Shown here: piece by piece, positions 4,466 through 41,306 of the stretch
Position numbering within the stretch: the first letter of the stretch is position 1
How the letters are laid out: every line of letters starts with the position of its first letter
Source of the DNA: a virus
Lineage: Duplodnaviria; Caudoviricetes
DNA length: 41,306 nt
Virus record (IMG/VR): IMGVR_UViG_3300032300_000179
Coordinates: 1-41,306 of that record
Strand: one strand, 5' to 3'
The notes under the pieces: model-generated
The model's database searches: none
What the model saw: only the letters and a program-made list of their open reading frames with translations
What the model was told of the DNA's origin: nothing
Position numbers and translations under genes: made by a program

Positions 4466-4494
4466 ATCATAAACCCTAGCGTTCCTGCCGTCAA
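4466..4494 (-). promoter_or_regulatory. sigma70-type early promoter
   Basis: TTGACG-17-TATGAT; spacer contains AACGCTAGGGTT. Confidence 0.8.
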
Positions 4495-5339
4495 CCCCCT
4501 ATTTCCAGCCGTTCCGCCAAGAACGATGGCAGCCCTGCCGACACAATATCCTGCTGCGCCCCCAGAATGTCGTACTCAACACGATGAATCTGGCGTGTAA
4601 CAATGCCGTCTGGGTTGGCTTGAAGCGAAAGCCATGCGGCTCGCTTGTCGTGATCCCGTGGCTGCCCCGCGCTTCCTGCGTTCATCCACGCCCCTGCCGC
4701 TGGAACTTCCAGCATATTTGGCTTGAGCGAGACCGTTGTGTACGGTGAATACATCCAGCCAAGGCTAATCTTGTCCGCAATGTCGTCTTCGCTCATGCCC
4801 TCCGTTGGGATTGGAGCAATAACAGATTCGCGGCGATAGATTTCTGCGGCTTGATGCGTGTGACCGTATAGACCAAAGTCTGCGTCAAATTCTTCAAGCG
4901 CCTTGAATGCGTCACCCGCAACTTGCGATGACATGTACTCCCACATTGGCGCTCGCGGGCTGCCGTGAACGAGAAGCGCATGCTCGCTGCCGATTGCCAT
5001 GCGAGCCATTGGGCGCAAACGGTACAAAAACTCCCGCGTCTTTTCATTAATGTTGTCTTTCGTCCACAAAATTGCAGCGCGTGCGTCCTCGCTAAAGTTA
5101 AGCGCCCTGCCCCAAGTGTTCAGCGCCTCTTCATCGTGGTTGCCCAAGATTCCGCGAGCGTTGACCTTTTGCAGCATGTCGCAGACCTCATTTGGTCGTG
5201 CGCCGTAGCCGACAAGATCGCCTGTGTGCCAGATTTGCTCTGGATTGAACTTAGCAATGTCTTCCAACACCGCGTCTAGCCCCTGAATATTTGCGTGAAC
5301 ATCGCTGATCACTGCAACCTTATTGATTTGTTCAGTCAT
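4491..5339 (-). CDS. calcineurin-like metallophosphoesterase (YfcE/MJ0912-like)
   Basis: SDVHAN, GDLVGYG, GNHD, VHGSP, GHTH, NAGSAGQPRD. Confidence 0.92.
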   Translation of the reverse strand: MTEQINKVAVISDVHANIQGLDAVLEDIAKFNPEQIWHTGDLVGYGARPNEVCDMLQKVNARGILGNHDEEALNTWGRALNFSEDARAAILWTKDNINEKTREFLYRLRPMARMAIGSEHALLVHGSPRAPMWEYMSSQVAGDAFKALEEFDADFGLYGHTHQAAEIYRRESVIAPIPTEGMSEDDIADKISLGWMYSPYTTVSLKPNMLEVPAAGAWMNAGSAGQPRDHDKRAAWLSLQANPDGIVTRQIHRVEYDILGAQQDIVSAGLPSFLAERLEIGG

Positions 5340-8034: not shown

Positions 8035-8805
8035 TTATTTTTCGGGAAGTGTTACATCCTCTTCCTGAACCTTGATCCTCATTCGGCGGGCGGCAGCCTT
8101 GGCTCCGTTGGGCTTGTACAGGATCTCATCCTCAATCAGCCCGATCTGCTCGCTTGTGTCTAGCCACCGTTTGCCCAGTTTGAATAGGATCTTGTAGAAA
8201 TCCTTGTCGTGGTTGCTATTCCAAGCCAGACCGTGGGCGATCTCGTGGAGCAGAATCCTGCGCCCAGCCCCGCCCTTGCTTGGAACTGAAATGTGGCGTT
8301 TTGCCCAGCAAACCCCGCCGTCTGCTTTACGGAACTTAATGCTGGTCGGGTGGTAGCCTGTCGTCCTGTAAATTCCTCTGACAACCTTACCGACCCATTC
8401 CAAATGCTCGCTGGCGACATGTCCGCCGACCCAAGTTGTTGCGTCGCCTTTGACAAGGAAAATGCTCTGTCGGTGCTGGTCGCAGACCCGCTTGCCGTAC
8501 CGAAGCCGCCCGCGAGCGGCGCGGGTGCAGCGCGCTTGAAGCAGTCTCCATTGGCAGCGGGGGGCAATTGGCATGAGTCGGATCTTAGCCGCTTGCCGCG
8601 CCCGTTGTCGGATAAGTTTGCGGAACTTTTTGAGTCGGTTGTTGTGGATAGCGCAGAGTGCCAGTTTTTGATCTGAGTAGTCTGGGTATCCATAAATGCT
8701 AACCGTCTGGGTGAACTTAACGGATCGCTTGCAGCCGTTCTCCCCGTTGTGCAAGAGCCAGAACTGCGGGAGGGGGTGCGCCCCTCCCTGACAGTGGGCG
8801 GTCAG
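8035..8805 (-). CDS. basic protein with Cys/His clusters and a SprT-like HExxH zincin domain
   Basis: ILLHEIAHGL...NHDKDFY; start uncertain (CTG at 8805 proposed). Confidence 0.7.
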   Translation of the reverse strand: MTAHCQGGAHPLPQFWLLHNGENGCKRSVKFTQTVSIYGYPDYSDQKLALCAIHNNRLKKFRKLIRQRARQAAKIRLMPIAPRCQWRLLQARCTRAARGRLRYGKRVCDQHRQSIFLVKGDATTWVGGHVASEHLEWVGKVVRGIYRTTGYHPTSIKFRKADGGVCWAKRHISVPSKGGAGRRILLHEIAHGLAWNSNHDKDFYKILFKLGKRWLDTSEQIGLIEDEILYKPNGAKAAARRMRIKVQEEDVTLPEK

Positions 8806-8939
8806 TTTCGCGCCCTCTTCTTTCGTGGCTTGTAGCACTTCTCGCAATGGGCGAGAAGCCCACCCGCCTCGTTGCGGGTAACGATTAGGTATCCGTGGCG
8901 CTTGCCGCCTACTGGACACAGATTCCAGAAGTTAAACAT
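8802..8939 (-). CDS. small Zn-finger-like basic protein (45 aa)
   Basis: Not in the ORF track; GAGGAGG RBS, MFNFWNLCPVGGKRH...CEKCYKPRKKRARN*; first gene after a promoter. Confidence 0.7.
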   Translation of the reverse strand: MFNFWNLCPVGGKRHGYLIVTRNEAGGLLAHCEKCYKPRKKRARN

Positions 8940-26998: not shown

Positions 26999-29134
26999 TT
27001 AGGCGACGACATTGCCCTGAAGACCACGGTAATCAAGGACTGCACCACCATAAATGTGGCGAACCTTGTAAGTGATCTTGTCGTTGCTGAACATTGAGCC
27101 ATTCGTTGGCTCGTCCTGCACGAACAGTTCAGGCTCTTCGCGTCCGTTGAGGAAGCCGATCTCAATTGTCGGAACATCCATTGGCGAAGCGGAGAGGAAC
27201 CAGTTGTTTGTGTCTGTCCAGTACGGAACGCTGACTACCTCAAGCCCGTAGGTTCGGGTGTAGTTTGCGTCCGACGGAGCAGCAACGCCAGCGCCCGAAG
27301 GCAGGACGATGCTGTTCAAGACAGTGAACACATCATGCTCAAGGTCAACTGGAACAATCAGGTAGCGTGGCGTAATGCCAAGGCGCTTGCTGTTGCTCAT
27401 GTCGGCTTGCTTCAGCATCTGAAGGCGAGCATTCTTGAGAGCGGAGGCGCTGAACGCCGTCGTTCCAAGGTTGTTGTGTCCAGCGACGAAGAGGGCAGTG
27501 CCGTCATAAATGTTGGCATTGTCCTTGTAGAAGTCAAACACAAACTCGTGAAGTGTCTGAGCGGCAGCCCGTCCAAGTCGGCGCGGAATGTCGCGGATTG
27601 CGCCAAGGTCGTCATTCACGATCATTTCCATCGTGATGACCTCAGTGCCACCCTTCTTGCTTGGCGCGTAGGTTGCCTCTTCGTCCGTTGGGCTGGTGAG
27701 TGCTGTGTAGGCGCTGCCCTCAGTCACCGTGGAGAGGTTGTTATACCCACCGAAGCGGATGCGGCGCTGGGTTCGCATGTCGTTAACCGAACCAACGGTT
27801 ACCAACTTGCGCCACTGGTCAAGGTTTGGCTGGTTGTAGAAGTCCAACAGGCGGCGGGTGATGGAGTCACCAAGGATCTCTGCGAACGATGAGGACGAAA
27901 GTGCCTCATTGAGTCGCGAGCCTTCCTGAATCTTGCCCGTGAAGGAGCGGTCGCCCGAAAGGTCAACATAGAGACCCTTAATGGACTGGTTGCTCTTGCC
28001 CGCAAGGATGTTATACACCCCTTCGGTCACGCGCTCCTGCTCGGACTTGACATCGGTCGCAACAGCGCCAGCGTCAACCACGGCAGGTGTGGTTAGGTCA
28101 GCAACATAGTCGGCTTCCGACTTAATCGCTGCATCAATCTGCTGCTCGTCAAGCACCTTGCCCTCAGTCGTCTCCCGAACGCGCTTCTTTGCGCTGTCTG
28201 GAAGGGTGACACCAGCAAGGCGAGCCTCAACGAGAGCCTTCGTCAAAATCGCGCCGACCTTTTCGGTCACGACCTCAACAGTAGGGGTCTCCGTCTGGTT
28301 CTCCACTGTTCCGTTCTCCTTCTGCGCATTTAGCGCATCAACTGCCTCTGCAAGCAACTGCTCGTAGAGATCTTGTCGCGCCCGCCTGAGTTCTTCAGGC
28401 AGGACGACACCTTCAGCGATAAAGCGAATTGCTTCATCTCTGTTCATAGTAACCCAATCAACTTGTGGCATTGCTTCTGCACTTGCTACCAAACGCATAG
28501 GCATGCCACCCGCAGCAGGGTTGACAACGACATCAACACTTTCAATCGTGTTGATCTTCGTTACATCAATAAATTGCTGGCGCGACTCTCGCACTACGGA
28601 TGTTTCACCGTCACCAACAATAGAAAAGCCCACAAGGTCTGGCTTTCCGCGCTTGATAGCGTCCGCCATCATTGATCGGAGCCATGGGGCTGCTTCTGAA
28701 ATATGGAAATTGGCGGCAACGCCAGAGACCTTTGCATTCTTCTTGGTTGGATGCGGGGCATCCTGCACCCAGCGAGCGCCTGTGTACCAGCCGACCAGCG
28801 ACTTTACGCCGCGCTCTTCTGGATTGTGGTCAACGCCCTTGCCAGCAAAGGCACGCGCTCCCTCAAAGAGTGGAACCGATTCTCGCAGAACTGCTTCTGA
28901 ATACCGCCGTCGGTTTTTGCTCATGCCAGCCTGAATCAACAAAACATCAATGACGCTTCCTGTTGGCTCAACTGATTCCATGATGAGACCTTCGGCTTCG
29001 TCGCCGTTTGGAATCTCAATTTCCGCCTCTACTTCGGCGACTGGCGCAACTTCTACCGCCTCTGGTGCGGCTTCTGGGGTCTCTGGCTGTGGCTCGCCCT
29101 CAACGGCAACCACCAACTCTTCAATTTCTGGCAT
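26999..29134 (-). CDS. prohead protease-scaffold-major capsid fusion
   Basis: N-domain GMSKNRRRY, DH, VGFS, SVDVVVNPAAGG (prohead protease-like); helical linker; HK97-fold capsid motifs VTEGSAY, NDDLGAI, PRYLIVP, KVRHIYG. Confidence 0.9.
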   Translation of the reverse strand: MPEIEELVVAVEGEPQPETPEAAPEAVEVAPVAEVEAEIEIPNGDEAEGLIMESVEPTGSVIDVLLIQAGMSKNRRRYSEAVLRESVPLFEGARAFAGKGVDHNPEERGVKSLVGWYTGARWVQDAPHPTKKNAKVSGVAANFHISEAAPWLRSMMADAIKRGKPDLVGFSIVGDGETSVVRESRQQFIDVTKINTIESVDVVVNPAAGGMPMRLVASAEAMPQVDWVTMNRDEAIRFIAEGVVLPEELRRARQDLYEQLLAEAVDALNAQKENGTVENQTETPTVEVVTEKVGAILTKALVEARLAGVTLPDSAKKRVRETTEGKVLDEQQIDAAIKSEADYVADLTTPAVVDAGAVATDVKSEQERVTEGVYNILAGKSNQSIKGLYVDLSGDRSFTGKIQEGSRLNEALSSSSFAEILGDSITRRLLDFYNQPNLDQWRKLVTVGSVNDMRTQRRIRFGGYNNLSTVTEGSAYTALTSPTDEEATYAPSKKGGTEVITMEMIVNDDLGAIRDIPRRLGRAAAQTLHEFVFDFYKDNANIYDGTALFVAGHNNLGTTAFSASALKNARLQMLKQADMSNSKRLGITPRYLIVPVDLEHDVFTVLNSIVLPSGAGVAAPSDANYTRTYGLEVVSVPYWTDTNNWFLSASPMDVPTIEIGFLNGREEPELFVQDEPTNGSMFSNDKITYKVRHIYGGAVLDYRGLQGNVVA

Positions 29135-29138
29135 TCAT

Positions 29139-31820
29139 TCAGTCCTTTTCTTCAGTCTCGGACTCTTTGATAGCAGCCCTGATGTTTAGTTTACATCCGC
29201 CTTGCGGTCTAATCACGCCCTCAACGATCTCGCAACCGTTTGGGCTGCGCCAGAACACGCAGGTTGAACACATGCGCCCTTCGTAGGCAAAAGGAGAAAC
29301 GGTCACATAATTTGCCCCGTCGCTGCCCTGCTGCGTCCACTTCCCTTGGCGCTTGGCAATGGTCTCGTAAGCGTCATACAAAGCGTTTGCCTTCGGCGGA
29401 AGCACCATGCTGGCTTCAGCCAAATTGATTTCGTTGTCTCCCATAGGGATTTCACCGTGAACGAAGTCCTCAACCCTTGTTGAGTACACGCTCTGAAGCG
29501 CCGCGCTCTTTTCTGATGGCTCCGCAGGGATGTCAATGGTTTCGTCCTCTGGCGTGTCGGCGACCTCAGCAACGATGTCATCCCAATACTGCGATGCCGC
29601 TGGATTTCGTTGCAGCACATCAGAGTTTTGCTTTTCGCACCCGCAAAGCACCTCAACCCACATGGCAATGAGGTCTTCATATGCGACTGGAGCGGTTGGG
29701 TTGCCAATTGACTCTTCGTCCACGGCTTCGTTGAGTGCCGCAACTTTTTCTGCGTTAGTCAACTCTCTAGGCTTGCCATTTTTATCAACCCTTCCGCGAC
29801 GCTGCACGCGGGCGAGAACACCTTTGCCCTCTGGTGTTTCTGTAAACTTTCCAGTCCTTGCATCCCAAGTGCCAGCCACTACATATTTAAACTTTGGCTG
29901 ATCTGGCTGCCCAGTTTCCCGATAAACAGCCTGTAGCCCTGTTCTTGAGTCAATGTCTGGCACTCGCTCAATGACCACCGCCCTATCCCACGCCTTTGGC
30001 TTTCCGTTAATGCCTTGAATAATCGCGGCATTAGACTTCACATGCCCGTCAGTGATTACTGCGTCGGGAACATTTCGGCGCATCTTTGCCGTAGTGCCGT
30101 CGGTTGTCTTTACCTCAATGTTTTTTGCGTTTCTCTGCTTGACTGTTCCGCGAATGCCGTCAGTTGGGCTTGTGCCAATTCTTGTTGTAATAAATACGCC
30201 CACGACTTCGTGGGTTCCTGAAGCGCCTTGGTAAATCCCAGCGCGCTTTTTGTCCGAACCGTCGCCAGTGCCGTCAAAAATAATGTCAGATTTCGTGTGG
30301 ATGCCGACCTCTAGGGCGCGCTGGGCAACGATGCTTGATTCCTCATGCACTCTTGCCGCCGCTGTAACCTTTGTTTTGCCGCCAGTAGTGCTTGGAACGA
30401 ATCGGTCGCCGCGAGCCTCTGCGTCTGCGCCCCAAATGCCATGCTTGGCGTGGTCTGAGTTAATAACTGCTGCCGTTCCCGTTGGTCGCAGCGTTGTCGT
30501 TCCGTCATCCTGTTGCTTTAGTGCTGGTGCTGGAACACGAATGCCAGCGTCTGCAAGGGCGCGACGCATTGCAAGCCCCTCTGGGTCGCTGTCTGCGCCC
30601 TCTAATTTCTTTAGAACCGTTGTTTTGCCAGAGCCGCCGCCGCCGCCCATAATGATTAGCGTTGGCTTGCCGTCTTCACGCGCAACTCCGCGTTCCTTTA
30701 CCAGCGCGGGCGAAAGAGTTTGCTGCGAAACAAGTTTTGTGTGCAGCCATTCTCGCTCTGGGGTCAGGCGACCTTCTGCGGTTGTGTGCATGCTAAGAGT
30801 GCCTTTTGGCTCTGTTGTCTTAAGGCTTGCAATTGTAGATGTTTTGCCTGCTGGCAACGCGCCTAGGTCAAGCGACTGAATTTGCCCAACACTGCTTGGG
30901 TCGGTAGAAACAATGTCAATCCTTTTGGCTTGAAATAGCGTTGGGTCGCGATACTCGCCAGCGCCGCCCCCGCCACCACCGCCACCACCCGTGCTGCTGC
31001 CGCCAGTGCTGCCAAATCGCCCCTTTTTGTCGCGCGGCTGACCTGCTGCGTACTCCAGCAGGATCTTGTCAACGACTGACTCCGCAGCCTCGCGAACCTT
31101 GTTGGTCATTTTGGGCGCTACGGCTTGAGCGCCTTGTCCAGTTCCTCCAACTGGGGGTCTCGCGGGCGCGGCTGTAGGCTGGCTGAGATTTGCTCCCAGA
31201 GCGCCTCCGCCACTGCTCGCCTTTGTTCTACCGTCATTTCCCCAATGTTCTCTGGAACCTTGAGAATGACTGGCTTCTCCGATTCGTCCATCACCACCTG
31301 TTGGGATCTCCTTCAATGTCCGAAGATTAAAAATGCTGATCTGGTTGCGATCTCGCCCTGCCTGTATTGCAACGCTCCTAGCGTTGGACGGGAAAACCTG
31401 CGTTACATCCAAGAATACACGACCACTTGAAACTTCGTGCCAAACGCCAAGGTGCATGTCTGGCTTAGCAAACACACTAGCGTTAGTTTCAAGGTATTTG
31501 TCAACTATTGCAACGCCTTTTTGCTTGTCAAAAAAATCGCTGGCTGGATGGATTTGACCAGCAATGCCAGTCGCAACCGCAAAGCCGCTTTTAGGCTGAT
31601 CGCCAGAAACGACGACCTTGCCATCGCCACTTGTTACTGTCGTTGGTAGGGTTGCCCCGCCAAACTCTGCGGTTTGGGCAATAACCTTTTCTGGGTCTAC
31701 CGCGCCGCCCCCGCCACCACCGCCGCCAGTACCAGAGAACCGCCCCTTTCGGTCTCTGGGCTGACCTGACGCATACTCCACAAGAAGATGATTAACAACG
31801 GCTTGTGCCATTTTTTGCAT
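29139..31820 (-). CDS. 893-aa multidomain head-region protein with a zeta-toxin-like P-loop kinase and HiPIP-like C-terminus
   Basis: Two EYAxGQPRDxKGRF + poly-Gly units; IMGGGGGSGKTT, VINSDHAK, VHEESS, IIFDGTG; CSTC...CEIVEGVIRPQGGC. Confidence 0.8.
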   Translation of the reverse strand: MQKMAQAVVNHLLVEYASGQPRDRKGRFSGTGGGGGGGGAVDPEKVIAQTAEFGGATLPTTVTSGDGKVVVSGDQPKSGFAVATGIAGQIHPASDFFDKQKGVAIVDKYLETNASVFAKPDMHLGVWHEVSSGRVFLDVTQVFPSNARSVAIQAGRDRNQISIFNLRTLKEIPTGGDGRIGEASHSQGSREHWGNDGRTKASSGGGALGANLSQPTAAPARPPVGGTGQGAQAVAPKMTNKVREAAESVVDKILLEYAAGQPRDKKGRFGSTGGSSTGGGGGGGGGAGEYRDPTLFQAKRIDIVSTDPSSVGQIQSLDLGALPAGKTSTIASLKTTEPKGTLSMHTTAEGRLTPEREWLHTKLVSQQTLSPALVKERGVAREDGKPTLIIMGGGGGSGKTTVLKKLEGADSDPEGLAMRRALADAGIRVPAPALKQQDDGTTTLRPTGTAAVINSDHAKHGIWGADAEARGDRFVPSTTGGKTKVTAAARVHEESSIVAQRALEVGIHTKSDIIFDGTGDGSDKKRAGIYQGASGTHEVVGVFITTRIGTSPTDGIRGTVKQRNAKNIEVKTTDGTTAKMRRNVPDAVITDGHVKSNAAIIQGINGKPKAWDRAVVIERVPDIDSRTGLQAVYRETGQPDQPKFKYVVAGTWDARTGKFTETPEGKGVLARVQRRGRVDKNGKPRELTNAEKVAALNEAVDEESIGNPTAPVAYEDLIAMWVEVLCGCEKQNSDVLQRNPAASQYWDDIVAEVADTPEDETIDIPAEPSEKSAALQSVYSTRVEDFVHGEIPMGDNEINLAEASMVLPPKANALYDAYETIAKRQGKWTQQGSDGANYVTVSPFAYEGRMCSTCVFWRSPNGCEIVEGVIRPQGGCKLNIRAAIKESETEEKD

Positions 31821-31825
31821 TTCGG

Positions 31826-31951
31826 TTATTCCTCAGACTCAGGCATCCGCTCATTCTTGCCGATAATCTCGCCAGTCTCTGCGTCTCGGACGATCTCGGT
31901 GAGCATACCAGTCTGCTCGTCTAGGTAGGCTGGTTCAGTGATGACTGGCAT
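31826..31951 (-). CDS. small acidic protein (41 aa)
   Basis: TAATG overlap with the upstream gene, GGAGG RBS; MPVITEPAYLDEQTGMLTEIVRDAETGEIIG... Confidence 0.65.
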   Translation of the reverse strand: MPVITEPAYLDEQTGMLTEIVRDAETGEIIGKNERMPESEE

Positions 31952-32856
31952 TAGGATACCTCCGCAAACAAACCGCCATTGTTCGCGCTGATTGTTCCTG
32001 TTGATGGTGTCACAAGGTCTGTTTCGCTAGAATCCGTGTAGTACTGCGCGCCTGTTGCGGCATTCGCTGCGGTAGATTGACGCGCCTGTGCGGTTAGAAG
32101 CGACGCAGAGTTTATACCAACAACTTGGATGACAGATACCCAGTACTCAGCCCCTGCAGTCATTGTGTAAGTTGCAGGGTAGCCACCTGTCGTATCAAGC
32201 GCACGAGTGTACTTGGTGTTGGTTGCGGCAAAGATTGATGTGTCTGATGCCGTGCGAGCGACGAGCGTGAAGGTTGTGCCGCTCCGCGTATAGATGCCGA
32301 AGCGAATAAGTGTTGCCGACCCTGCCGCTTGTGCAGTGCTAACAAAAGCAATGTTGGTGACCGTGAAAGTCCTATGAGGGATAATCTTGCTGTGGTAAAT
32401 CACACCTGTGTTAGTGCTAGTGGTACTCCCTAAAACAAAACGCGGCACAGTAGCAATAACTCCAGCCGTACCAAAGGTGTGCGCCTCCCACCCTGCCGTG
32501 GCAATGTCATACGCCGTCTTGACGGCAGTTGGCGTAGCGGCAAGCACGCTGCTTGTAGTGCTGACTGAGTCGCTCAACTGCACCACGCCAGAAGCGGAGG
32601 TTGATGCGGCGGTGATGCTGAGGTTGGCGCTGCTGCTAGTACCAGCATTAGTGAGCGGAGCATTGACTGCAATAATCCCAGACGATCCAGTCGCACCAGT
32701 CGCCCCTACCACACCCTGAATGCCCTGAATGCCTTGAATGCCCTGCGCGCCAATCGTGCTAACTGTTACTGATTGCGTAGTCGGGGAAACAACAACGGTT
32801 CCGCGCTGGTCAACGATTGTAACGGTTTGGGTGTTCTGGGTTACGGTGACGCTCAT
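31951..32856 (-). CDS. fibre protein with collagen-like and phage-fibre repeats (probable head fibre)
   Basis: GAQGIQGIQGIQG..GATGATG; ASTSASGVVQLSDSVSTTSSVLAATPTAVKTAYD. Confidence 0.8.
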   Translation of the reverse strand: MSVTVTQNTQTVTIVDQRGTVVVSPTTQSVTVSTIGAQGIQGIQGIQGVVGATGATGSSGIIAVNAPLTNAGTSSSANLSITAASTSASGVVQLSDSVSTTSSVLAATPTAVKTAYDIATAGWEAHTFGTAGVIATVPRFVLGSTTSTNTGVIYHSKIIPHRTFTVTNIAFVSTAQAAGSATLIRFGIYTRSGTTFTLVARTASDTSIFAATNTKYTRALDTTGGYPATYTMTAGAEYWVSVIQVVGINSASLLTAQARQSTAANAATGAQYYTDSSETDLVTPSTGTISANNGGLFAEVS

Positions 32857-33200
32857 CGCGTGACCTCTGGCGTGATGACTGCCCCTCCCTCAAGCAAGCG
32901 AGTCACTACCCCGCCAGAAGAAACCAATTCTAAATCGTAAACGCCGACCACTGGGGCGGAAAGCGCGGCTGTTTGCGCCGCCGTAGCCGTGATAGTGATT
33001 GTTCCAGCCGCGCCGCCAAGCGCAATGCCGCTGGCTGTAGTCAATGAAAGCAACTCGGTGGCGGAGGAATGATGCGTCCGAACCGATAGGCGCGCTGTGT
33101 AACCCGTTAGATTGATTGCCGTTCCCGACGAATCTTTCCAAGTGGCGACGAGTGAAAGCGTCGCCCCCTGCTCAATCGTAAGCGTGTATGCGCCTGCCAT
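32853..33200 (-). CDS. small beta-sandwich virion protein (fibre adaptor-like)
   Basis: LTIEQGAT...INLTGYTARLSVR...GVYDLEL...RLLEG...PEVTR; coupled to the fibre gene. Confidence 0.75.
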   Translation of the reverse strand: MAGAYTLTIEQGATLSLVATWKDSSGTAINLTGYTARLSVRTHHSSATELLSLTTASGIALGGAAGTITITATAAQTAALSAPVVGVYDLELVSSGGVVTRLLEGGAVITPEVTR

Positions 33201-33202
33201 TG

Positions 33203-33388
33203 TTACTTGCCCTGCAAAATAATCTTGCGTCCGTTAGAAGTTACAACGATGCGCGTGTCGCCATCCTTGCGCTCCGAAAGAACGACTTCGCCATCAGCCA
33301 AAACGAGTTCAGCCCTCTTGGACTGCTCCTTCACTGGCGCTACCTGTGGCTCCTGCGCCTCCGTCGGCACTACCTTGTCCTTGGACAT
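33203..33388 (-). CDS. small hypothetical protein
   Basis: ATG at 33388 after AAGGGAG; GEVVLSER...VVTSNGRK. Confidence 0.65.
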   Translation of the reverse strand: MSKDKVVPTEAQEPQVAPVKEQSKRAELVLADGEVVLSERKDGDTRIVVTSNGRKIILQGK

Positions 33389-33746
33389 TTCGGTTCTCCC
33401 TTTCTTTTTGCTTTCTATTTTCCCAATCTGGGTAAACGAGATCAATCAACTCCATGATGGAGACCATTTTCCCGTCTAGGACAATAATAGCCCCTCTTCG
33501 GTTGCGGAGGTAGAACAAGCCAAGGCTGGCAATGTAGCGATTTCCCGCCTCATGCGACAGCGGCTCCCTTGTAATCCAGTCTTTTACGCCGTACAGGTTC
33601 AGTTCTGCCACCAATGCGTTCAGCCGACCAGTTGCGCCAGCATGCAGGGTGCATTCTTCGCTGTCCTGCGAGCGCACCGTGCCTACCAACTCCCAGCCAG
33701 CGTCCAGTTTGTCGTTATCTTCGTAAATCTGAATTTCTAGTTGCAT
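33309..33746 (-). CDS. hypothetical protein, candidate immunity protein for the MuF kinase
   Basis: Starts 15 nt after the MuF stop with a GGAGAGG RBS; function inferred from position only. Confidence 0.55.
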   Translation of the reverse strand: MQLEIQIYEDNDKLDAGWELVGTVRSQDSEECTLHAGATGRLNALVAELNLYGVKDWITREPLSHEAGNRYIASLGLFYLRNRRGAIIVLDGKMVSIMELIDLVYPDWENRKQKERENRNVQGQGSADGGAGATGSASEGAVQEG

Positions 33747-33761
33747 TTGACCTCTCCTTCC

Positions 33762-36700
33762 TTACGGCTCGTCGCTTAGTGGAAGGGCAGGGATCTGCCC
33801 CTCCACCCTGTTTGGATCTTGTCGCACCCCGCCCCCTGTTGCTGGGGCAATATTTGCATCAAGCAAAGACTGACCGTCATCAAACGCGCCACGAATAACT
33901 TCGTCAGCGTTGCTGGATTGGGGGTTGTACCCTGCGTTGTCAAAAGTGCGATAGTCCATCTGCTCCCCAGAACGAAGCATCCAGATCAGGCGATAGAAAA
34001 AACCCCTTGTTCTGCTCGCGCCCATCTGAGCAGTAAGTCGCACATACAAATCGCTTCTATTAGACCAAAGGCGCACAAGCACCTCTCTTGCTCGCGGCGT
34101 AAGTTTCTCACCTCTTACCTGCGCCATAAATGGCGACAAGTTTACGAAGTGACCACCATCCAAATGCACATCTGGATCTGGGAACGCAAGCCCGTTGTCA
34201 ATCGGCACAATCTTGAATTCATCCCATCGTTCTCCAGTTTTTTGCCCAGTTACGGGATCAATTGGGTATCCCTCATCGTCAAACACTGGCTGCCTTGCTG
34301 TTGGAACAGGAGCAAATAGATAATTTCCACCGTGGCGGTCAAGATTTCCGATTAGCGTGTCAAAGAGACCCATTAGGTCTGCATTGACTGGCGACTTGCT
34401 TCGGGTCATCGCGCTGTGCGATCCTGAGTACCCAGTGAGCCAGTCCATGACCAAAGCCGCGCTTTCATCAAGAGTGTTGCCATTTGCGTCTTTGAGATAC
34501 GGCAAATCTCTGATGTACGCTTGCGCTTTGCGAATAAAAAGACCGCCCAACTCGTCAATAATTTGCGCCGCTGGTTCAGCCCAAAGGTCTGAGCGTTTAA
34601 AATCGCCGTATTCTCGTCTGATTGGCTTTGGATACATCTTTTCTACGGATTTAATAATAAATGGATGACCTTTCCACTTTCCCTTCCATGGCTCGTTAAT
34701 GCTCCCGCTGCCAAGAGACTTTGCGGTATCTGGCGCGTCAAGTTCCGTTGTTGTTACGCCCATAATTGTCTGCTCTACGCCCTTCATGATGTCGTCAAGG
34801 CGCTCGCGGTATTGTTCAATTTCGGCTTGAACTTGGGCATCCGTGACATCAAGGAATTTGTTTTTTGGGATAGCCTTAACCGCAGCCTCAAGATCCTTGT
34901 CCAAAGCCTCTAGTGTCTTTTCGTACAAGTCTTCTGAAACCACCACTGCTGGCTTTGATCGCGCCGCTCGCGCAAGCCTCTGGCGCTCTGCCTCAATCGC
35001 TGATCGCTTATCGCGGATTAATTTTCTTGCTTTTGCAGCCCACTCTGCGACCTTGATTTTTCCGCCAAGCAGCGCAGCGTTGTTTTCGTTAAGGACAGCA
35101 ACGATTTCTTTTCTTGTCAAAGACTGTCGCTCAAGTTGCAGGTTGACTAAGTGATCGCGCATTGCTTTTGCGACAAGGCGCAGTTTCTGCGGCGTGAGCG
35201 GGGATGCCTCTCTGTAGTCGCTTTCTGGGTTTCTTAGTCGCGCCAGCGACCTAAACCTTGCAGCAATTGCCATGCCAGCGCCTTCGGCTGCGATGTCGCT
35301 CATGCCGCGCTTGCCAAATCGCACAAGTTTGCTGTTCATCCCTGCAAGAATTGCAGGAATAAAAATGTCTGATGAACGATCATCCCCGCCAACTACTGTG
35401 CCAGTTCTGATTTCTGACAGCGCGTGCGCAGTGTAAATATCAATTAGGTCGTCGTATTCCTTGGTTCCGCGAGTGTAGCCAAGCGCCTCAACGATTGGCG
35501 CAACCCTTGCTGAAATCAGCGCAGATCGCTCCTCTGCATGCGTTTTTGCGGCAGCAAGCACCATATCGTAAGCCGCCTGAGCATCTGGGTTCCCGCGAAG
35601 ATCCCACTCGTATGCGTCAAGAAGTTGCGTCGCCTCCCAGAGTTCTGGGGTAAGTTTCACCGTGCCGTAAGCGTCTTCGGAAAACAGCGTTCCGTCGCTG
35701 CGACCTGCTGGCGCGTTTTTTGCTGCTTCGTCTGCAAGGATCTCTAGCAGCGTTGCCTCAAGTTCGTACCAAGCAATGTCCACTGGCTTGTCAACCCAAG
35801 CGTCGTCTTTCACCAGCATCTGCCCTTCGTGCGGCGCAAGCGAACCCATCAATTCCCGTTGCTGATCTTTTGTGTATGCGCGAGACAAAATTGCGCGCAA
35901 AATAAACGATGGGTCTTTGTACATGCGGCGCACAAATTCAGCGCGATTATCAACCGCTGATGCTCGCGCACTAATCCAAGCGCCTTGTGGCTCGCCTGCG
36001 GGCGGTGCGTCTGGCAAAGGAAACAATTCTGCCGCAAGAGCAGACAAATCTACCGCCTCAACTGGTCTGACACGCTTTGCCAGTGGCAGGATGCCCGTGA
36101 CCTTTGCGTAATGCGGGTTTCCGTCAAGATCTGGGTTGTTTCTGTATCGCAAGCCAGTGCTGCTATAGCCTCTTACATCAGACCAGAATGCCGAAGCGCC
36201 AACTTCTGCGCCGTCTTGAAGTCTTGGCAATGCAATAAACGCTGCGATCAATGGGTCGCTTGGGTTTGCTCCGCGCTCCACTGCCGCCTTTGCCACAGCA
36301 CGCAACACATCCTCAAACTGAATTGGGTCGTGCAGGGCATCTCGCCCAACACCGTCAGCAAGTCGCAATGCTGCCCTTCGCGCATCCCTTGTTGCAGCCT
36401 GCGCAAGTTTAAAGACTCCAAGTGTGGGGCTTTCTGCGCCAACATCTTTTGTGACATTAAGTTGACCGCCACTATTTCGTGGCGATGCAGTGCGCTGGTC
36501 AGTTTTGTAACTCGCCGACTTAAATAGACCAGTGTTTGCAAGACCAAGCAACTGATTCCCGACTGCGATACGCAAAAACTGCCTAAATCCTCCGTCACCA
36601 GAAAGATCTACCTCAACAAGCCCCCTAAACGGCTGGCTGGTATCCTGAATCAGAATTTCCCCTGATCCCATGGCTGCATTTGGATCGTAGAATTCAAATT

Positions 36701-39700
36701 TGTCTTCAACCATCACAATTGGTCGCTTTGTTAGTTGGTCGTAGGTTACGCCCGCTTCACCAAGGGGCGCTGGAACAAGAATTTTCCTGCTCATTGACAT
36801 TGGCAGTGGAATCCCAGAGTTTTCTGGAACAATTACTACCGCATTATTTCCAAGACCGTCACGCAGACCATTTGATGTTGTGTTGCGCGTGATCATAACT
36901 TTGAGCAAGTCTGCTTCGTACAGTTTCCTTAGCATTGCAACTCTCGGCTCTCCAAGGACTTGCTCTGGAGTAATTCCGCGCTCTTCCGCAAACTGCATAA
37001 GGTCAACAGCATCAGCGCCGTTTTGCTCTGCAAACACATCTAGCCTTTGGTATTGATATTCCGACTCTGAAATGCCAGCGCCGCTTAATCCCCTGATACC
37101 AAACAGCCGCCTAAGAATTACATCTCTTGGAATGTTCGGGTTTGCAGCAATAATCCGTTCCGCAATCTCTCCAAACACTGTGCCTTTTAGTTTTTCTGCG
37201 CGCCACAAACCAAAATCGTCTGAAAGGTCAAGACCAAGGCTTGTAAGCCTTTTGTGCAGCGCAGCGACTTCCACCGTGCTTCGCTCTGTGTTGTCTACAT
37301 CGTTGTACCCAGTCGCCCACTCAATAACCTCCGTGATTGCGTCTGAAGCCCTTCCGATTCTTCCAGTTGCTTGCTGATATGTTTCCTGCTCTTCAGGGGT
37401 CAACTGCTCGCCGCGACGCTTCTTGTTGGCAATCAAAATCAATTCTGGGAGTCTTGCCTCAAGATCCGCAACGGATGCTGGCGGCGTATCCCAAGTTACG
37501 AGCGGGTCTTGCCCTTCTCCTGCTGGTACTGAGACCTTGCCGTTCTCAATGAGTTCGCCAAGAAGGTTTAGTTCAATGTTTTCCATAGGCTTGTACCGTC
37601 CAGCGCGCCTCTCAAAAGGCAAGAACTTAGATGGCGAGCCTTCTGCGCCAGTGGCTACACGATAGGCAAGAAGTTTTTCTAGGTGAGCAAGGAACGGAAT
37701 AGCGGATTCCCTGCTGTTAATTGCTTGTGGCAACACCAGAATTGGCACTGGCTCGTTGCGCGCTAGTCTCCAGCCGCCAATTGCGTAGTGCGTTTTGAGC
37801 AGGGATGTGTCGTACATGCCTGTTTTGTTGTGCAGGAAATTGAAGATATTCTCTACTCCAACGATCTTACCGTCAGCAGGAATAACCACCTGTGGGCTTG
37901 GCGGATCAACAAGGTCGTGCATCTGGAAAATGCGCTTACCGCTTGGGTCAACAAGATCCTCAATCTCTTTGTTTCTTTGGGCATCAATGATTGACTCTCC
38001 CGTGTCGGCATTGTGCTTAAGAATAAATGCGCGAGCCTCTTCGTTGCCAATGTAACTGCTTAGGTCAAAAACGAGTTCTCCCTTATCGTTTGTGTACCAA
38101 ACTTGTTCGTTGAAAATGTCTCCCGCTAGGTCGGTTCTGTTTGCCCTTGGCAGCACAAAAAGTTCCGCAGGGCGTGCGTTGGTAATCAAGCCAGATGGCT
38201 GCAAGAGTGGACGATCTGGGTTGAGGTAGTTCATTAGGAAGTCGTAGCCGCTTACGCCAAGTCTTAGCGTTCCAGCAGCCCGATCCACCTGCCCCATGCT
38301 GATTACCCCTGCCTTTTCCATGTCGTCGTAAAACGCTGTTACTTCTGCTGGGTCAGTAGGAACTTGAATCCTCAGCACAACCTCTTTGTGCATGTCGGCA
38401 ACGCGAAGCGCCAAGTCCTGCACGGGGATGTACCGTGCGAACTTTTCAAATCGTGTTCCGTACAGGGCAAGCGAGACTGGGTTGAGCGTGGTGTAGCCAG
38501 ATCCCTGACCTTCATCTGGTGTTGCGATGCGAACCGTGATGGTCTGGTCTGATGGTGTCGTGCCAATATTGAGTCTCGCCGCCTCTGCGTTGATTAGTTC
38601 CAACATGTTTCTGAGCAGAACCGTCTTGCTTTGCCACTCAGCCTTTTCCTTAAGCATTCCTCCCCGCGAGTCCACTGCGTCGCCTAGGTCTGAAACAATG
38701 TCAGAGACAAGTTTTGCCGTTCTGTATCCGATTCTTTTTGCGTCAGCCATCAAGATGCCGCGAACGATAGATGCGCGCACAGCCTTTGGAATTGCCTTCC
38801 ATTTTTTTCGGTCAAGTTGCAGGTCGCCGTCGCCCCAGTTTGGTTTCAGGTTATTGTTTGCGCCAAAGCCAAACCCGCCTTCGTCTGTAAGCAGCAATTG
38901 CTTCCAATACTCACGCTGGCTTTCGCGATTATCTTTGTCCGTTGCAACCAATTTCTGCAACTGCTCTGCGGTCAACTTGGAAATAGACCCTTCTGTGGCA
39001 ATAATCAGCGGCGTAGGGAGTTCAACCAACTCAACCTCTTCTGGGTCAATCAATACCTTTTTCTTGTTTTTGAGTGGCTTTTTACGCTTTCCTTCGCCGC
39101 GCTGTTCGGCGAGCCACAATTGGAAATCCGCAGCATCAACAGACAGGCGCGGGTCGTGCGTTGCTAGGCTTGGAACTGGCTTGAGCAGTGCTTGGCGCTC
39201 TGCCGTGTTCAAAATCTTTGAGGCAAACCGCACGAACGACAGGACGCTAGATGGTCGCGACCTTGCAACCACATTCCCGCTCAAACCAAATTGCTGCTGA
39301 ATGCCAGCAATGACGGAAAGGGGCGTTACGCCACTTCTCACCGTGATCGGCTGCTGCGGGGCTGTAGGGTCTGGCGCTCCGCTTAGTGCTGGGGTTGTTG
39401 CGTTCTGATTAACAAAAAATGTCTCTAGCGCAGCGTCGGATGGGTCGTAGCCGATGTCATAACTAAAACCGTTTGGCGGAATATCGTCTGCGTAAGAAAA
39501 CGCTTCGCCACCACCACCCGATGCCGTTCCAACCATGCCGCCATCCTGCATCATCGCAAGCATGTCGCCGAATGTTCCATCGTCTGGCATTGCCCCAAGC
39601 CGATCTGCGATCTCTGGCGGGAAAGATGGAACAACCATGCAGCGGCAATTGACTGCGTGCTTGGCTGGGAGGCTTGGGTCTTTCGGGAACTGGGCTGTGT

Positions 39701-40592
39701 ACTCGCCAACCATAAACGATTCGTTAATCGGGATAATCGTTCCATCCAGCGCGGCGTGTTCTGGTCGCGTTCTGTGGTCGCCTACCGCAATCCACTCTTT
39801 GTACATGACTCCGTTTGCGTCCAGCATGTAGGAACGCTGGTCTCGCGACAGTCCATAAGGATTCGCTGCCAGCGCCTGAATGCCGCTCATGGCTGCGATG
39901 TTGCTGACGCGACCAAATTCTGTGCGCACAATGGCTTCGGCTCGCACCGCAGCAGTAGGGAATGCGCCAATCGGCGTTGCCACAGAAGTCAACCGTGCCA
40001 TGCTCTCTGCTGGCGTAGTCAATGCCAACGAGTTCCTGACGATTTCTGCCTGCACAGCCTTCTTCAGCGTTCCGACCTGATCAGCGATCAGTTCTGGCAC
40101 AAACGAAACGGCAATGTCTACTGAGCGAGCGTCAATCGCAACTAGCCCACGACCCTGCTCTGCGCTGCGACCAATTTCTGGGCGTGCGGAGTTTGTAGAC
40201 CTTGTTAGTTTGGAAACTGCCTTTGTGACCTCTGCGTTGATTTTGTCGGTTTGCTGCTGGGGCATGCCCTTGGACAGAATCTTGACTTCCTCTGCTGCCG
40301 CCCGCGCAATGGTGAGCAGTTTGCTGCGAAGTTCACCGTCAAGTCGCTCCAGTGCTGCAATTTGCTGCTGTGCGCGGCGAACGCGCCACTCAGGGGCTTG
40401 ATTTGCTTGAATGTCCACCAGAATGGCTGCGACCTCTGTTTGCGCTGCATTGATGGCTGTTTGGATCTTTGCGACTGCATCCGACTCAAGGGTGATTTGA
40501 TTCTGTGCGCGACGCAAAAGCGACTCTGCCCATCGGGAGCGAGCCTTAGATGTTTGCCAATTCTGGCGCTGGTCTTCAGTCTGGCTGGGCAA
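33762..40592 (-). CDS. MuF (gp7/Mu gpF-like) minor head protein, 2276 aa, with C-terminal PI3/PI4-kinase/HipA-like domain
   Basis: Follows the portal; IVRTE...KEWIAVGDHRTRPEHAALDG...FPKDP...NCRC; C-terminal GSGSIN, FIIK, LFDTLIGNLDRHGGNYL, IVPIDNGLAFP. Confidence 0.9.
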   Translation of the reverse strand: MPSQTEDQRQNWQTSKARSRWAESLLRRAQNQITLESDAVAKIQTAINAAQTEVAAILVDIQANQAPEWRVRRAQQQIAALERLDGELRSKLLTIARAAAEEVKILSKGMPQQQTDKINAEVTKAVSKLTRSTNSARPEIGRSAEQGRGLVAIDARSVDIAVSFVPELIADQVGTLKKAVQAEIVRNSLALTTPAESMARLTSVATPIGAFPTAAVRAEAIVRTEFGRVSNIAAMSGIQALAANPYGLSRDQRSYMLDANGVMYKEWIAVGDHRTRPEHAALDGTIIPINESFMVGEYTAQFPKDPSLPAKHAVNCRCMVVPSFPPEIADRLGAMPDDGTFGDMLAMMQDGGMVGTASGGGGEAFSYADDIPPNGFSYDIGYDPSDAALETFFVNQNATTPALSGAPDPTAPQQPITVRSGVTPLSVIAGIQQQFGLSGNVVARSRPSSVLSFVRFASKILNTAERQALLKPVPSLATHDPRLSVDAADFQLWLAEQRGEGKRKKPLKNKKKVLIDPEEVELVELPTPLIIATEGSISKLTAEQLQKLVATDKDNRESQREYWKQLLLTDEGGFGFGANNNLKPNWGDGDLQLDRKKWKAIPKAVRASIVRGILMADAKRIGYRTAKLVSDIVSDLGDAVDSRGGMLKEKAEWQSKTVLLRNMLELINAEAARLNIGTTPSDQTITVRIATPDEGQGSGYTTLNPVSLALYGTRFEKFARYIPVQDLALRVADMHKEVVLRIQVPTDPAEVTAFYDDMEKAGVISMGQVDRAAGTLRLGVSGYDFLMNYLNPDRPLLQPSGLITNARPAELFVLPRANRTDLAGDIFNEQVWYTNDKGELVFDLSSYIGNEEARAFILKHNADTGESIIDAQRNKEIEDLVDPSGKRIFQMHDLVDPPSPQVVIPADGKIVGVENIFNFLHNKTGMYDTSLLKTHYAIGGWRLARNEPVPILVLPQAINSRESAIPFLAHLEKLLAYRVATGAEGSPSKFLPFERRAGRYKPMENIELNLLGELIENGKVSVPAGEGQDPLVTWDTPPASVADLEARLPELILIANKKRRGEQLTPEEQETYQQATGRIGRASDAITEVIEWATGYNDVDNTERSTVEVAALHKRLTSLGLDLSDDFGLWRAEKLKGTVFGEIAERIIAANPNIPRDVILRRLFGIRGLSGAGISESEYQYQRLDVFAEQNGADAVDLMQFAEERGITPEQVLGEPRVAMLRKLYEADLLKVMITRNTTSNGLRDGLGNNAVVIVPENSGIPLPMSMSRKILVPAPLGEAGVTYDQLTKRPIVMVEDKFEFYDPNAAMGSGEILIQDTSQPFRGLVEVDLSGDGGFRQFLRIAVGNQLLGLANTGLFKSASYKTDQRTASPRNSGGQLNVTKDVGAESPTLGVFKLAQAATRDARRAALRLADGVGRDALHDPIQFEDVLRAVAKAAVERGANPSDPLIAAFIALPRLQDGAEVGASAFWSDVRGYSSTGLRYRNNPDLDGNPHYAKVTGILPLAKRVRPVEAVDLSALAAELFPLPDAPPAGEPQGAWISARASAVDNRAEFVRRMYKDPSFILRAILSRAYTKDQQRELMGSLAPHEGQMLVKDDAWVDKPVDIAWYELEATLLEILADEAAKNAPAGRSDGTLFSEDAYGTVKLTPELWEATQLLDAYEWDLRGNPDAQAAYDMVLAAAKTHAEERSALISARVAPIVEALGYTRGTKEYDDLIDIYTAHALSEIRTGTVVGGDDRSSDIFIPAILAGMNSKLVRFGKRGMSDIAAEGAGMAIAARFRSLARLRNPESDYREASPLTPQKLRLVAKAMRDHLVNLQLERQSLTRKEIVAVLNENNAALLGGKIKVAEWAAKARKLIRDKRSAIEAERQRLARAARSKPAVVVSEDLYEKTLEALDKDLEAAVKAIPKNKFLDVTDAQVQAEIEQYRERLDDIMKGVEQTIMGVTTTELDAPDTAKSLGSGSINEPWKGKWKGHPFIIKSVEKMYPKPIRREYGDFKRSDLWAEPAAQIIDELGGLFIRKAQAYIRDLPYLKDANGNTLDESAALVMDWLTGYSGSHSAMTRSKSPVNADLMGLFDTLIGNLDRHGGNYLFAPVPTARQPVFDDEGYPIDPVTGQKTGERWDEFKIVPIDNGLAFPDPDVHLDGGHFVNLSPFMAQVRGEKLTPRAREVLVRLWSNRSDLYVRLTAQMGASRTRGFFYRLIWMLRSGEQMDYRTFDNAGYNPQSSNADEVIRGAFDDGQSLLDANIAPATGGGVRQDPNRVEGQIPALPLSDEP

Positions 40593-40598
40593 AGGTGG

Positions 40599-41306
40599 TT
40601 ACTCCCCTTGCGGTTCTGGCGTTTCCTGTGTTTCTGGCTTTTCCATTGCGTCTGGCGAGCCGTCGTTCTGCGCTGGCTTCGCTGGCACACCCTTTTTAGC
40701 CTGCTGGGGCTGCGTTTGATTGAAAATGGTGGCTAGGCTTGGCTGGCTGTTTTCCGCCTCTGTAGCCGCCTTTTCAGCCTCCTCTTCAATCATCTCCAGT
40801 TCCTTGTCAGGCTCCAGTTCAATGCCCAACTGTCCAGTGATGCTGAGGAAGACCTTTCGTGCAGAATCTTCCGAAATAAACTTGGCATCCTTGGCTGCTG
40901 CAAGCGCGCCCATCAGTTGTGGCAGTGCGGCTGCAATTCCCTTGGTGTCTTCCACGCTTGGATCTGGCAGGATCACCGTCACTGTGCGATCTACGCCCTT
41001 GGAGAGTCGCCCTGCTGAAATCGCCTTGGAGATCACATACTGGGCGATGTCCTCAAACACTGAGCCAACAAGTCGCTGGCGTGCTGTGAGCATGCGGTAG
41101 GTCGGGTCGCCCTGCGCTGCGAGTGTGGCGCGGTTCGCTGAGTCGCCATCTGCAAACCAGCCCTCTGGCACGCCTGCGCCACCAAGAATTAGATTCTTAA
41201 TGAGGCGGCTGATTGTCTCTGTTTCGGCTGCGCCTAGGGCTGGGGATACTGCTTGCCATGTCTCGTAGTCATTGTGGACACGCACAGTGCCAGCCTTTGG
41301 TGCATA
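40599..41306 (-). CDS. portal protein, C-terminal part
   Basis: GVPEGWF-x4-SANRAT...RQ motif typical of portal C-terminal halves; joins 1..900. Confidence 0.85.
   Translation of the reverse strand, partial: YAPKAGTVRVHNDYETWQAVSPALGAAETETISRLIKNLILGGAGVPEGWFADGDSANRATLAAQGDPTYRMLTARQRLVGSVFEDIAQYVISKAISAGRLSKGVDRTVTVILPDPSVEDTKGIAAALPQLMGALAAAKDAKFISEDSARKVFLSITGQLGIELEPDKELEMIEEEAEKAATEAENSQPSLATIFNQTQPQQAKKGVPAKPAQNDGSPDAMEKPETQETPEPQGE
41184..41306. repeat. second copy of the 123-bp terminal overlap
   Basis: identical to 1-123. Confidence 0.95.

Follow-up and report, generated by a model that had tools for sequence, protein, structure and literature searches.

MuF polymorphic toxins are encoded by a MuF1 gene directly behind the portal gene and carry a long extension that ends in an enzyme, with a short open reading frame (ORF) behind (PMC5576092). 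Among the proteins listed there, four deltaproteobacterial MuF1 proteins of 1,524-1,529 amino acids (aa) have the entry 'Kinase' under Other_domain (Deba_1819, Dde_1907, GM18_2966 and Sfum_3803; Jamet 2017, Table S5). All four were scored as non-toxin, the class of the kinase was not stated, and 'Kinase' occurs 0 times in the available part of the main text. Polyvalent proteins are likewise very large head-module proteins with an effector domain, with zeta-like and ADP-ribosyltransferase (ART) cargos nearby, and include a zeta kinase on MuF; in the part of that text available, 'Phosphatidylinositol', 'PI3K' and 'lipid' occur 0 times (PMC5512222). Here, we describe a gene of comparable layout in the 41,306-nucleotide (nt) DNA of a tailed virus (IMG/VR record IMGVR_UViG_3300032300_000179, positions 1 to 41,306; hereafter, the window), which encodes a giant MuF protein that ends in a predicted kinase of the type II phosphatidylinositol 4-kinase (PI4KII)/Fam20 type and is followed by a 145-aa ORF.

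The T7 kinase gp0.7 is made early from phage DNA and is not known to be virion-borne. It offers the same functional model, that of a phage kinase that disables host defences, and is broadly anti-defensive, but has a DPV motif and a shut-off domain (PMC13645617). The kinase gene of the Gratiaviridae lies between the portal and major capsid genes, as the window gene does; however, its product was called HipA-like and proposed to serve superinfection immunity, and MuF occurs 0 times in the available part of that paper (PMC8008677). Head-packaged MuF effectors are a precedent for carried enzymes (PMC5512222, PMC9503650). A lantibiotic-type kinase has been described on PVC systems (PMC3482391). In the literature searched, which lacked most subscription papers, no article on phage head proteins bearing a PI4KII-like kinase came up. 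The gene described here, its parts and its small neighbour are arranged as follows:

33762..40592, minus strand: giant MuF-kinase protein, 2,276 aa, a single open frame immediately downstream of the portal gene
39600..40592, minus strand: MuF1 region, aa 1-331, with the Pfam core at aa 258-320 (39821-39633)
34740..39599, minus strand: middle cargo of about 1,620 aa, with no recognised domain and no membrane helix
33843..34739, minus strand: predicted PI4KII/Fam20-like kinase domain, aa 1952-2250, with K1981, R1992, E2006, N2083, D2085, R2086, H2087, N2090, D2132 and R2201
33309..33746, minus strand: 145-aa ORF, 15 nt behind the kinase stop

The motifs of the intact PI3/PI4-kinase-superfamily domain that an initial annotation of this DNA, made from the sequence alone, had read at the end of the giant MuF protein lie where it had placed them: GSGSIN at 34712-34695, FIIK at 34661-34650 (K1981), WAEP at 34583-34572 (E2006), DRHGGN at 34340-34323 (D2085), and IDNG at 34202-34191 (D2132). 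The pair N-x-DRH..N and [IVL]D[NH]G appeared in none of 20,000 shuffles of the protein. K1981, E2006, D2085, R2086, H2087, N2090 and D2132 are invariant in 12/12 full-length homologues. Across the wider family, N2083, D2085, R2086, N2090, D2132 and R2201 are present in 69 of 69 members, K1981 in 63 of 63 and E2006 in 63 of 64. All the catalytic elements listed in the initial annotation are present in the window protein; the Lys, Glu, Asp, His, Asn and second Asp are conserved, but the Gly loop is not (SSSS in 4/12 full-length homologues; the loop of PI4KIIalpha is Ser-rich too). The ratio of nonsynonymous to synonymous divergence (dN/dS) of the kinase domain against the related loci L002 and L003 is about 0.17, a rough value, since dS exceeds 1, and by this measure the domain is under purifying selection. 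The variable Gly loop and the fact that this ratio is no lower than that of the middle region (0.16-0.28) would fit a domain that binds ATP or a partner without catalysis, in a protein that is mainly a structural or ejection component. Against such a role, the catalytic residues are all invariant where overall identity is 20-30%. We regard a non-catalytic domain as hardly probable and an active enzyme as very likely.

The gene starts with TTG; this codon is preceded, 9 nt away, by GGGGAG and lies 7 nt beyond the portal stop, and the start is at or near the same place in 8 of 11 homologues (P0006 and P0008 are annotated shorter). It takes up 6,831 of the 41,183 unique bases (16.6%), in agreement with the one sixth of the genome estimated initially. 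When the kinase region was used as a query, 12 proteins of 1,998-2,334 aa were obtained, the window's own among them, all with a MuF domain. A frameshift or misassembly was considered and rejected: open frames of 1,998-2,334 aa are present in 11 homologues, and the ORF is identical, without any differences, in locus L001 and in one contig of run X1, which are a possible source of the record and not independent of it. At the N-terminus, Phage_Mu_F of Pfam matches aa 258-320 above its cutoff (E 7.9e-9), and PHROG 2468 matches aa 40-328 (E 1e-28); the MuF1 region is conserved along with the portal and terminase. MuF and the kinase are the only domains recognised in the chain. The middle, in which the initial annotation had seen no motif over about 1,600 aa, is blank in Pfam (aa 332-1950, E 0.1), in PDB profile searches and in Atlas; there is no internal repeat in this region. 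A FliG_C-like reading of aa 1395-1640 (best Atlas score 0.85) was rejected, being below 0.9 and of low recognition. A patch at aa ~1400-1630 (35673-36410, minus strand) is kept even in the most distant homologues, which are 28-31% identical, and is probably a distinct uncharacterised domain, judging from this conservation. The only Cys residues of the whole protein are C316 and C318; the kinase domain has none.

To place the kinase in a class, profiles and a structure model were compared. Searched against 1.84 billion proteins, a profile built from 8 close domains matched 119 at E<=0.001, only 4 of them at E<=1e-30; apart from these 4 close ones and one 96-aa fragment, 114 relatives were scanned (P0044-P0157). 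Pfam PI3_PI4_kinase matches 107 of the 114 and 8/8 aligned homologues, and the window domain itself at E 2e-4, below the cutoff, whereas neither HipA_C nor HipA_2 matches it at E<=1. An alignment of 69 sequences, composed of the close domains and shorter relatives, served for the family profile and the structure model. Against the PDB, this profile matches PI4KIIalpha (E 2.8e-18), PI4KIIbeta (4.5e-15), Fam20 (2.5e-10 to 1.2e-6) and CtkA (0.04), with no HipA chain among the 31 matches at E<=1. The model has a kinase fold with a predicted local distance difference test score (pLDDT) of 92.2 and a predicted template modelling score (pTM) of 0.91; it was used instead of an earlier, poor model from 8 sequences (pLDDT 54.8). 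Ranked against 48,161 chains, PI4KIIalpha comes first (Z 17.5; 236 residues aligned with a root-mean-square deviation of 3.6 A) and leads by 5.5 Z over Hydra Fam20 (12.0), followed by CtkA (11.8), actin-fragmin kinase (11.1), CotH (10.8), HipA (9.4) and MavQ (9.1), all members of the same atypical kinase superfamily and all clearly further away than PI4KII. PI4KIIalpha is also the top Foldseek match in the PDB (E 1.5e-6). Because both the profile matches and the fold ranking put PI4KII first and HipA far behind, the tip is predicted to be a PI4KII/Fam20-type kinase rather than a HipA. The initial designation 'PI3/PI4-kinase/HipA-like' named the superfamily correctly, but among solved structures the closest relatives are the type II PI4-kinases and Fam20, not HipA. 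The gene upstream is the portal gene, not one for a HipB-type regulator.

Compared with the type II PI4-kinases of known structure (PDB 4pla, 4hnd and 4wtv), the window kinase has an identical IDNGLAFP and retains the Lys, Glu, Asp, Asn and Asp, but has a His where these enzymes have a Gly after DR, and it is fused to a phage head protein. The DRH is shared with CtkA, and Fam20 kinases have it too. The STY kinase of polyvalent proteins has lost its C-terminal subdomain and has an insert between the His and Asp (PMC5512222), whereas the window kinase has a contiguous DRH and, according to the model, keeps a helical C-lobe, with five helices after the IDNG strand. A thymidine kinase match (E 0.009) was rejected because it has a different fold and vanished with the deeper profile; matches to PADLOC PDC-M03A and NCBIfam SCO1664/YjjJ span the catalytic loop alone and are far under their cutoffs. 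A tblastn search of 50,697 phage records gave no match for the window kinase.

The likeness to a lipid kinase raises the question of the substrate. PI4KII is anchored to membranes by insertions and binds its substrate in a pocket with E157, Y159, R181, L184, T307, D308 and L349 (PMC3974213). Both the palmitoylation insertion (an amphipathic helix with CCPCC) and the RK-rich insertion are missing from the window kinase and are inserts relative to the family profile; the spacing from Lys to Glu is 25 in the window kinase versus 41 in PI4KII. Because these membrane-anchoring insertions are missing, a protein substrate appears likelier than a lipid, and we lean somewhat towards a protein; protein kinases predominate among the structural neighbours after PI4KII (Fam20C, CtkA, actin-fragmin kinase and CotH). 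Phosphorylation of a lipid head group, an inositol or a sugar by the delivered kinase, as by PI4KII or Fam20B, with an altered membrane or envelope at entry, would be consistent with the lead of PI4KIIalpha in the fold ranking and over Fam20 in the profile search, and with a Fam20 xylosylkinase as the third fold match. It would also fit the pocket, where R1992 (conserved in 53/61) and L2135 (61/69) match R181 and L349. The missing insertions speak against it, as does the lack of conservation at the equivalents of E157 and Y159. In addition, Halorubrum and Microbacterium, hosts of carriers of the family, are not known to have phosphatidylinositol. We consider this reading unlikely. The position of T307 is a Leu in the window kinase and a Thr in 9/12 homologues; the insert between the two Asp motifs has 47 residues in the window clade, 38 in PI4KIIalpha and about 16-22 in most relatives. 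A broader proposal is that, in bacterial and archaeal tailed viruses, the closest prokaryotic relatives of eukaryotic PI4KII serve as a virion-delivered effector that has its own inhibitor family and phosphorylates a membrane lipid or another non-protein target at the injection site. This is quite improbable; if true, it would be a way of preparing the host that has not been described for any phage.

The kinase is not confined to the window clade. On the 114 distant relatives, at least 14 MuF1, at least 2 MuF2 and at least 3 portal domains were found, along with ART (at least 4) and zeta (at least 2) cargo domains, and several have tandem kinases; the counts are lower bounds, as they rest on the best five families per protein. 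A search with P0055 gave MuF matches only, among the best 40 of 303. A scan of viral contigs yielded 39 kinase loci, 33 of them outside the window clade, and MuF lies within the kinase ORF in 15 of these 33 (12 of 29 after the removal of four duplicates). Cultured carriers also exist, with E values by the family profile, scaled to a million sequences, of 6.6e-16 for HSTV-2 gp16, 3e-18 for Myxococcus Mx1, 8e-17 for Micromonospora pMLP1 and 9e-11 for Microbacterium Pumpernickel gp82. In pMLP1, a 43-kb circular record from Micromonospora, the kinase is at the end of a 647-aa minor head protein (MuF2 plus kinase) behind the terminase and portal, and its His is replaced by Asn. In HSTV-2, it is fused to the N-terminus of gp16 in the head-tail block. 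Pumpernickel gp82 (2,235 aa), two genes past the portal, ends in the kinase (L071:626-12558, gp82-84), and no MuF was detected in it; gp84 (1,534 aa) of the same phage bears a QPRD tag (see below). Matches by fold in BFVD include Mycobacterium phage Onyinye, Gordonia phage GodonK and HHTV-1, and UniProt automatic annotation places a PI3K/PI4K domain on some phage proteins. Altogether, the kinase on phage head proteins is a widespread architecture and not a one-off. According to the initial annotation, this kinase class was not known as a characterised MuF tip. The spread of the architecture (at least 19 of 114 on MuF or portal) and the giant MuF proteins with a 'Kinase' entry in Table S5 qualify that statement; the class is not stated in that table. 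The view, taken in the same annotation, that the protein is carried in the virion remains plausible.

The small gene behind the kinase, which the initial annotation did not mention, is conserved as well. The 145-aa ORF is present in every clade locus that extends that far (100-38% identity), whereas 15 more distant capsid relatives have neither the kinase nor this gene, and their MuF protein has 257-328 aa in 13 of them, has 620 aa in one and is cut in one. The 620-aa protein (L046:5425-7287) has a weak zincin-like tip (ATLF, E 0.005). Behind distant kinases, 26 non-redundant ORFs of 60-160 aa (duplicates and other sizes omitted) were compared by leave-one-out profile tests, in which 10 reached P<0.001, 14 reached P<0.01 and 12 neither. 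The resulting partner family of 14 members has no Pfam match (13 scanned) and no PDB match. When its profile was run against the 13,463 ORFs of all loci, matches at E<0.01 were obtained in kinase loci only, six of them outside the training set. Profile-profile comparison links the family of the window protein to the partner family (E 0.0012, 58 collinear columns, above 300/300 column shuffles), and the window protein thus probably belongs to it. Among the cultured carriers, the downstream ORF of pMLP1 matches the partner profile (0/1,000 shuffles) and that of HSTV-2 does so marginally (9/1,000). A direct likeness of the 145-aa protein to the pMLP1 downstream ORF, proposed by eye, failed (E 0.44). 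Since the 145-aa protein is a probable member of a small family that follows these kinases, it is a candidate kinase inhibitor, although it might also be an activator or a substrate. The predicted complex of the kinase and the 145-aa protein scored 0.19 versus the mark of 0.32, a score that counts neither for nor against an interaction. Tandem kinase genes with small partner-family members behind them are present at L079:892-6805, L088:2128-5320 and L091:2-7007; in L079, one reading frame holds both the partner domain and the kinase that follows. The MuF-kinase of the window belongs to a broad and apparently uncharacterised module of kinase and partner on head proteins of phages.

The window, from a tailed phage, has a direct terminal repeat of 123 nt. 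CheckV estimates its completeness at 49%; nevertheless, the genome is probably whole, because homologues sit on contigs of up to 39.9-45.5 kb. Relatives are present in lake-water and freshwater runs X12 and X3. Domain scans covered 38 of the 128 ORFs of at least 80 aa, a non-overlapping minus-strand set. The genes run in the order small and large terminase, portal, giant MuF gene, 145-aa ORF, two tail-fibre-like genes, 893-aa ORF, the gene for a 711-aa protein whose last domain is a capsid domain, and then the neck, tail tube and tape measure genes. The features outside the giant gene are:

40599-41183 joined to 1-915: portal gene (PHROG match), joined across the 123-nt terminal repeat and split by the window ends
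29400..39580, minus strand: variable island from the MuF end to the capsid gene, with 60-90% nt identity or unrelated genes
29139..31820, minus strand: 893-aa ORF with two QPRDxKGRF tags (aa 20 and 261) and a zeta-toxin-like P-loop (Pfam E 3e-9)
26999-29134, minus strand: 711-aa protein that has a capsid domain at the C-terminus and matches PHROGs of protease-capsid fusions
8035-8919, minus strand: 294-aa ORF that contains an HExxH motif and weakly matches WLM metalloprotease (E 4e-4)
4491-5339, minus strand: calcineurin-like metallophosphoesterase (NinI-like Ser/Thr phosphatase PHROG, E 7e-10)

The closest cultured match of the 711-aa protein is in Microcystis phage Mae-JY22 (38.5%). Naming a host from this match and from capsid relatives on five contigs of metagenome-assembled genomes binned as Pseudomonadota was rejected, as they are too distant.

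The variable island, likewise absent from the initial annotation, begins within the giant gene. Compared with L002 and L019, the first 331 aa are 100% identical with a dS of 0.10-0.13, and identity falls to 62-79%, with a dS of 1.2-1.5, at aa ~340-357; nt identity is back to 89-99% at the capsid gene. The flanks of L019 are 92-99% identical at the nt level, versus 60-90% or unrelated genes inside the island, and L008 and one contig of run X12 break at the same place. Because dS and dN rise jointly, this pattern points to an exchange of the whole cargo by recombination. No swapped tips were found in the clade: of the 12 loci found by MuF, 7 are cut and 5 hold the whole ORF, and 5/5 of the latter, a small sample, end in the kinase, as do two further matches; the cargo is exchanged as alleles. 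Inside the island, ART and zeta-like genes with a common QPRDxxGRF tag are exchanged among relatives. The tag is also present in 7 of the 114 kinase relatives (shuffles: mean 0.34, maximum 3), and it may, as a guess, be a packaging signal. Tagged ART-like ORFs occur at L002:8437-9273 and L006:12265-13170 (Pfam E 3.5e-5 to 8.5e-5), the former in the place of the tail-fibre-like genes of the window. The tagged 893-aa ORF, whose C-terminus is rich in Cys and weakly matches an iron oxidase (E 0.12), and which is split into two ORFs in L006, is a likely second head-associated effector, judging from its tags and P-loop.

These data bear on whether the protein is a classic MuF polymorphic toxin, that is, one half of a toxin-immunity pair from which a lysogen benefits because rival cells, or cells just infected, are arrested. 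The layout is suggestive: MuF, a C-terminal enzyme and an ORF of less than 150 aa behind, here one of 145 aa at 15 nt from the stop, is the pattern of 89.4% of the MuF toxin genes (PMC5576092), and the circular pMLP1 record would be compatible with such a life style. However, the window phage shows no sign of being temperate, no integrase being found among the 38 ORFs scanned, although an absent match is weak evidence, and what replaces a tip is another allele, not a different domain. The MuF domain also has no relative in a scan of GTDB genomes, an absence that is equally weak evidence. Taken together, this alternative is very improbable.

We propose that the MuF-kinase is delivered by the virion and phosphorylates host proteins, likely before phage genes are expressed and probably against host defences, and we assign this reading a probability of roughly 40%. 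The protein would be made late; MuF would dock it near the portal, so that a few copies would be packed in the head, while the 145-aa protein would keep the kinase off in the producing cell. It would then be ejected with the DNA into the next host, where it would phosphorylate Ser/Thr proteins before phage gene expression, in counter-defence or takeover, like the T7 kinase. The presence of the protein in the virion is very likely, and its entry into the next cell is probable. Several observations weigh against this proposal. Whether a protein of about 250 kDa can travel down a long non-contractile tail is not established (the scan of 38 ORFs revealed no tail sheath), and packaged enzymes of such kind are enriched in myoviruses (PMC9503650). 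The closest structure of the kinase domain is a lipid kinase, and the equivalents of R181, D308 and L349 of its phosphatidylinositol pocket are kept. Some carriers are stand-alone or tandem kinases and not head fusions. As for the putative inhibitor, the 145-aa protein alone is weak on the partner hidden Markov model (51/1,000 shuffles; hhalign probability 19%), and the partner profile matches neither the gene behind the Mx1 kinase nor the one behind the Pumpernickel kinase. Finally, a kinase in the same genomic slot was read as late-acting and not injected (PMC8008677).

This last argument, made for the Gratiaviridae kinase, leads to the alternative that the enzyme acts late in the producing cell, on virion or host proteins during assembly or as a block to superinfection, with MuF merely localising it to proheads. 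The gene is in the putative late operon, and fusions to the portal and to the N-terminus of HSTV-2 gp16 would be hard to eject. Moreover, the window encodes the NinI-like metallophosphoesterase, which is kept, at 75-83% identity, in the 5 related loci that extend that far and is possibly a counterpart of the MuF-kinase. Yet ART, zeta and Nudix cargos that are read as injected sit on these anchors too, and an exchange of the cargo while MuF, portal and capsid stay fixed is a better fit to a host-facing conflict. A late role is therefore doubtful, and virion delivery remains our preferred reading.

If the particle carries a kinase, this enzyme could be at work before phage genes are read, at the time at which DNA-sensing defences strike. 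The characterised phage kinases of the T7 type, by contrast, are made after entry. The cultured carriers, pMLP1, Pumpernickel, Mx1 and HSTV-2, make packaging, delivery and substrate testable, and the family would make it possible to test directly if injection of long MuF cargos takes place at all. A viral link to the PI4KII and Fam20 kinases is possible.

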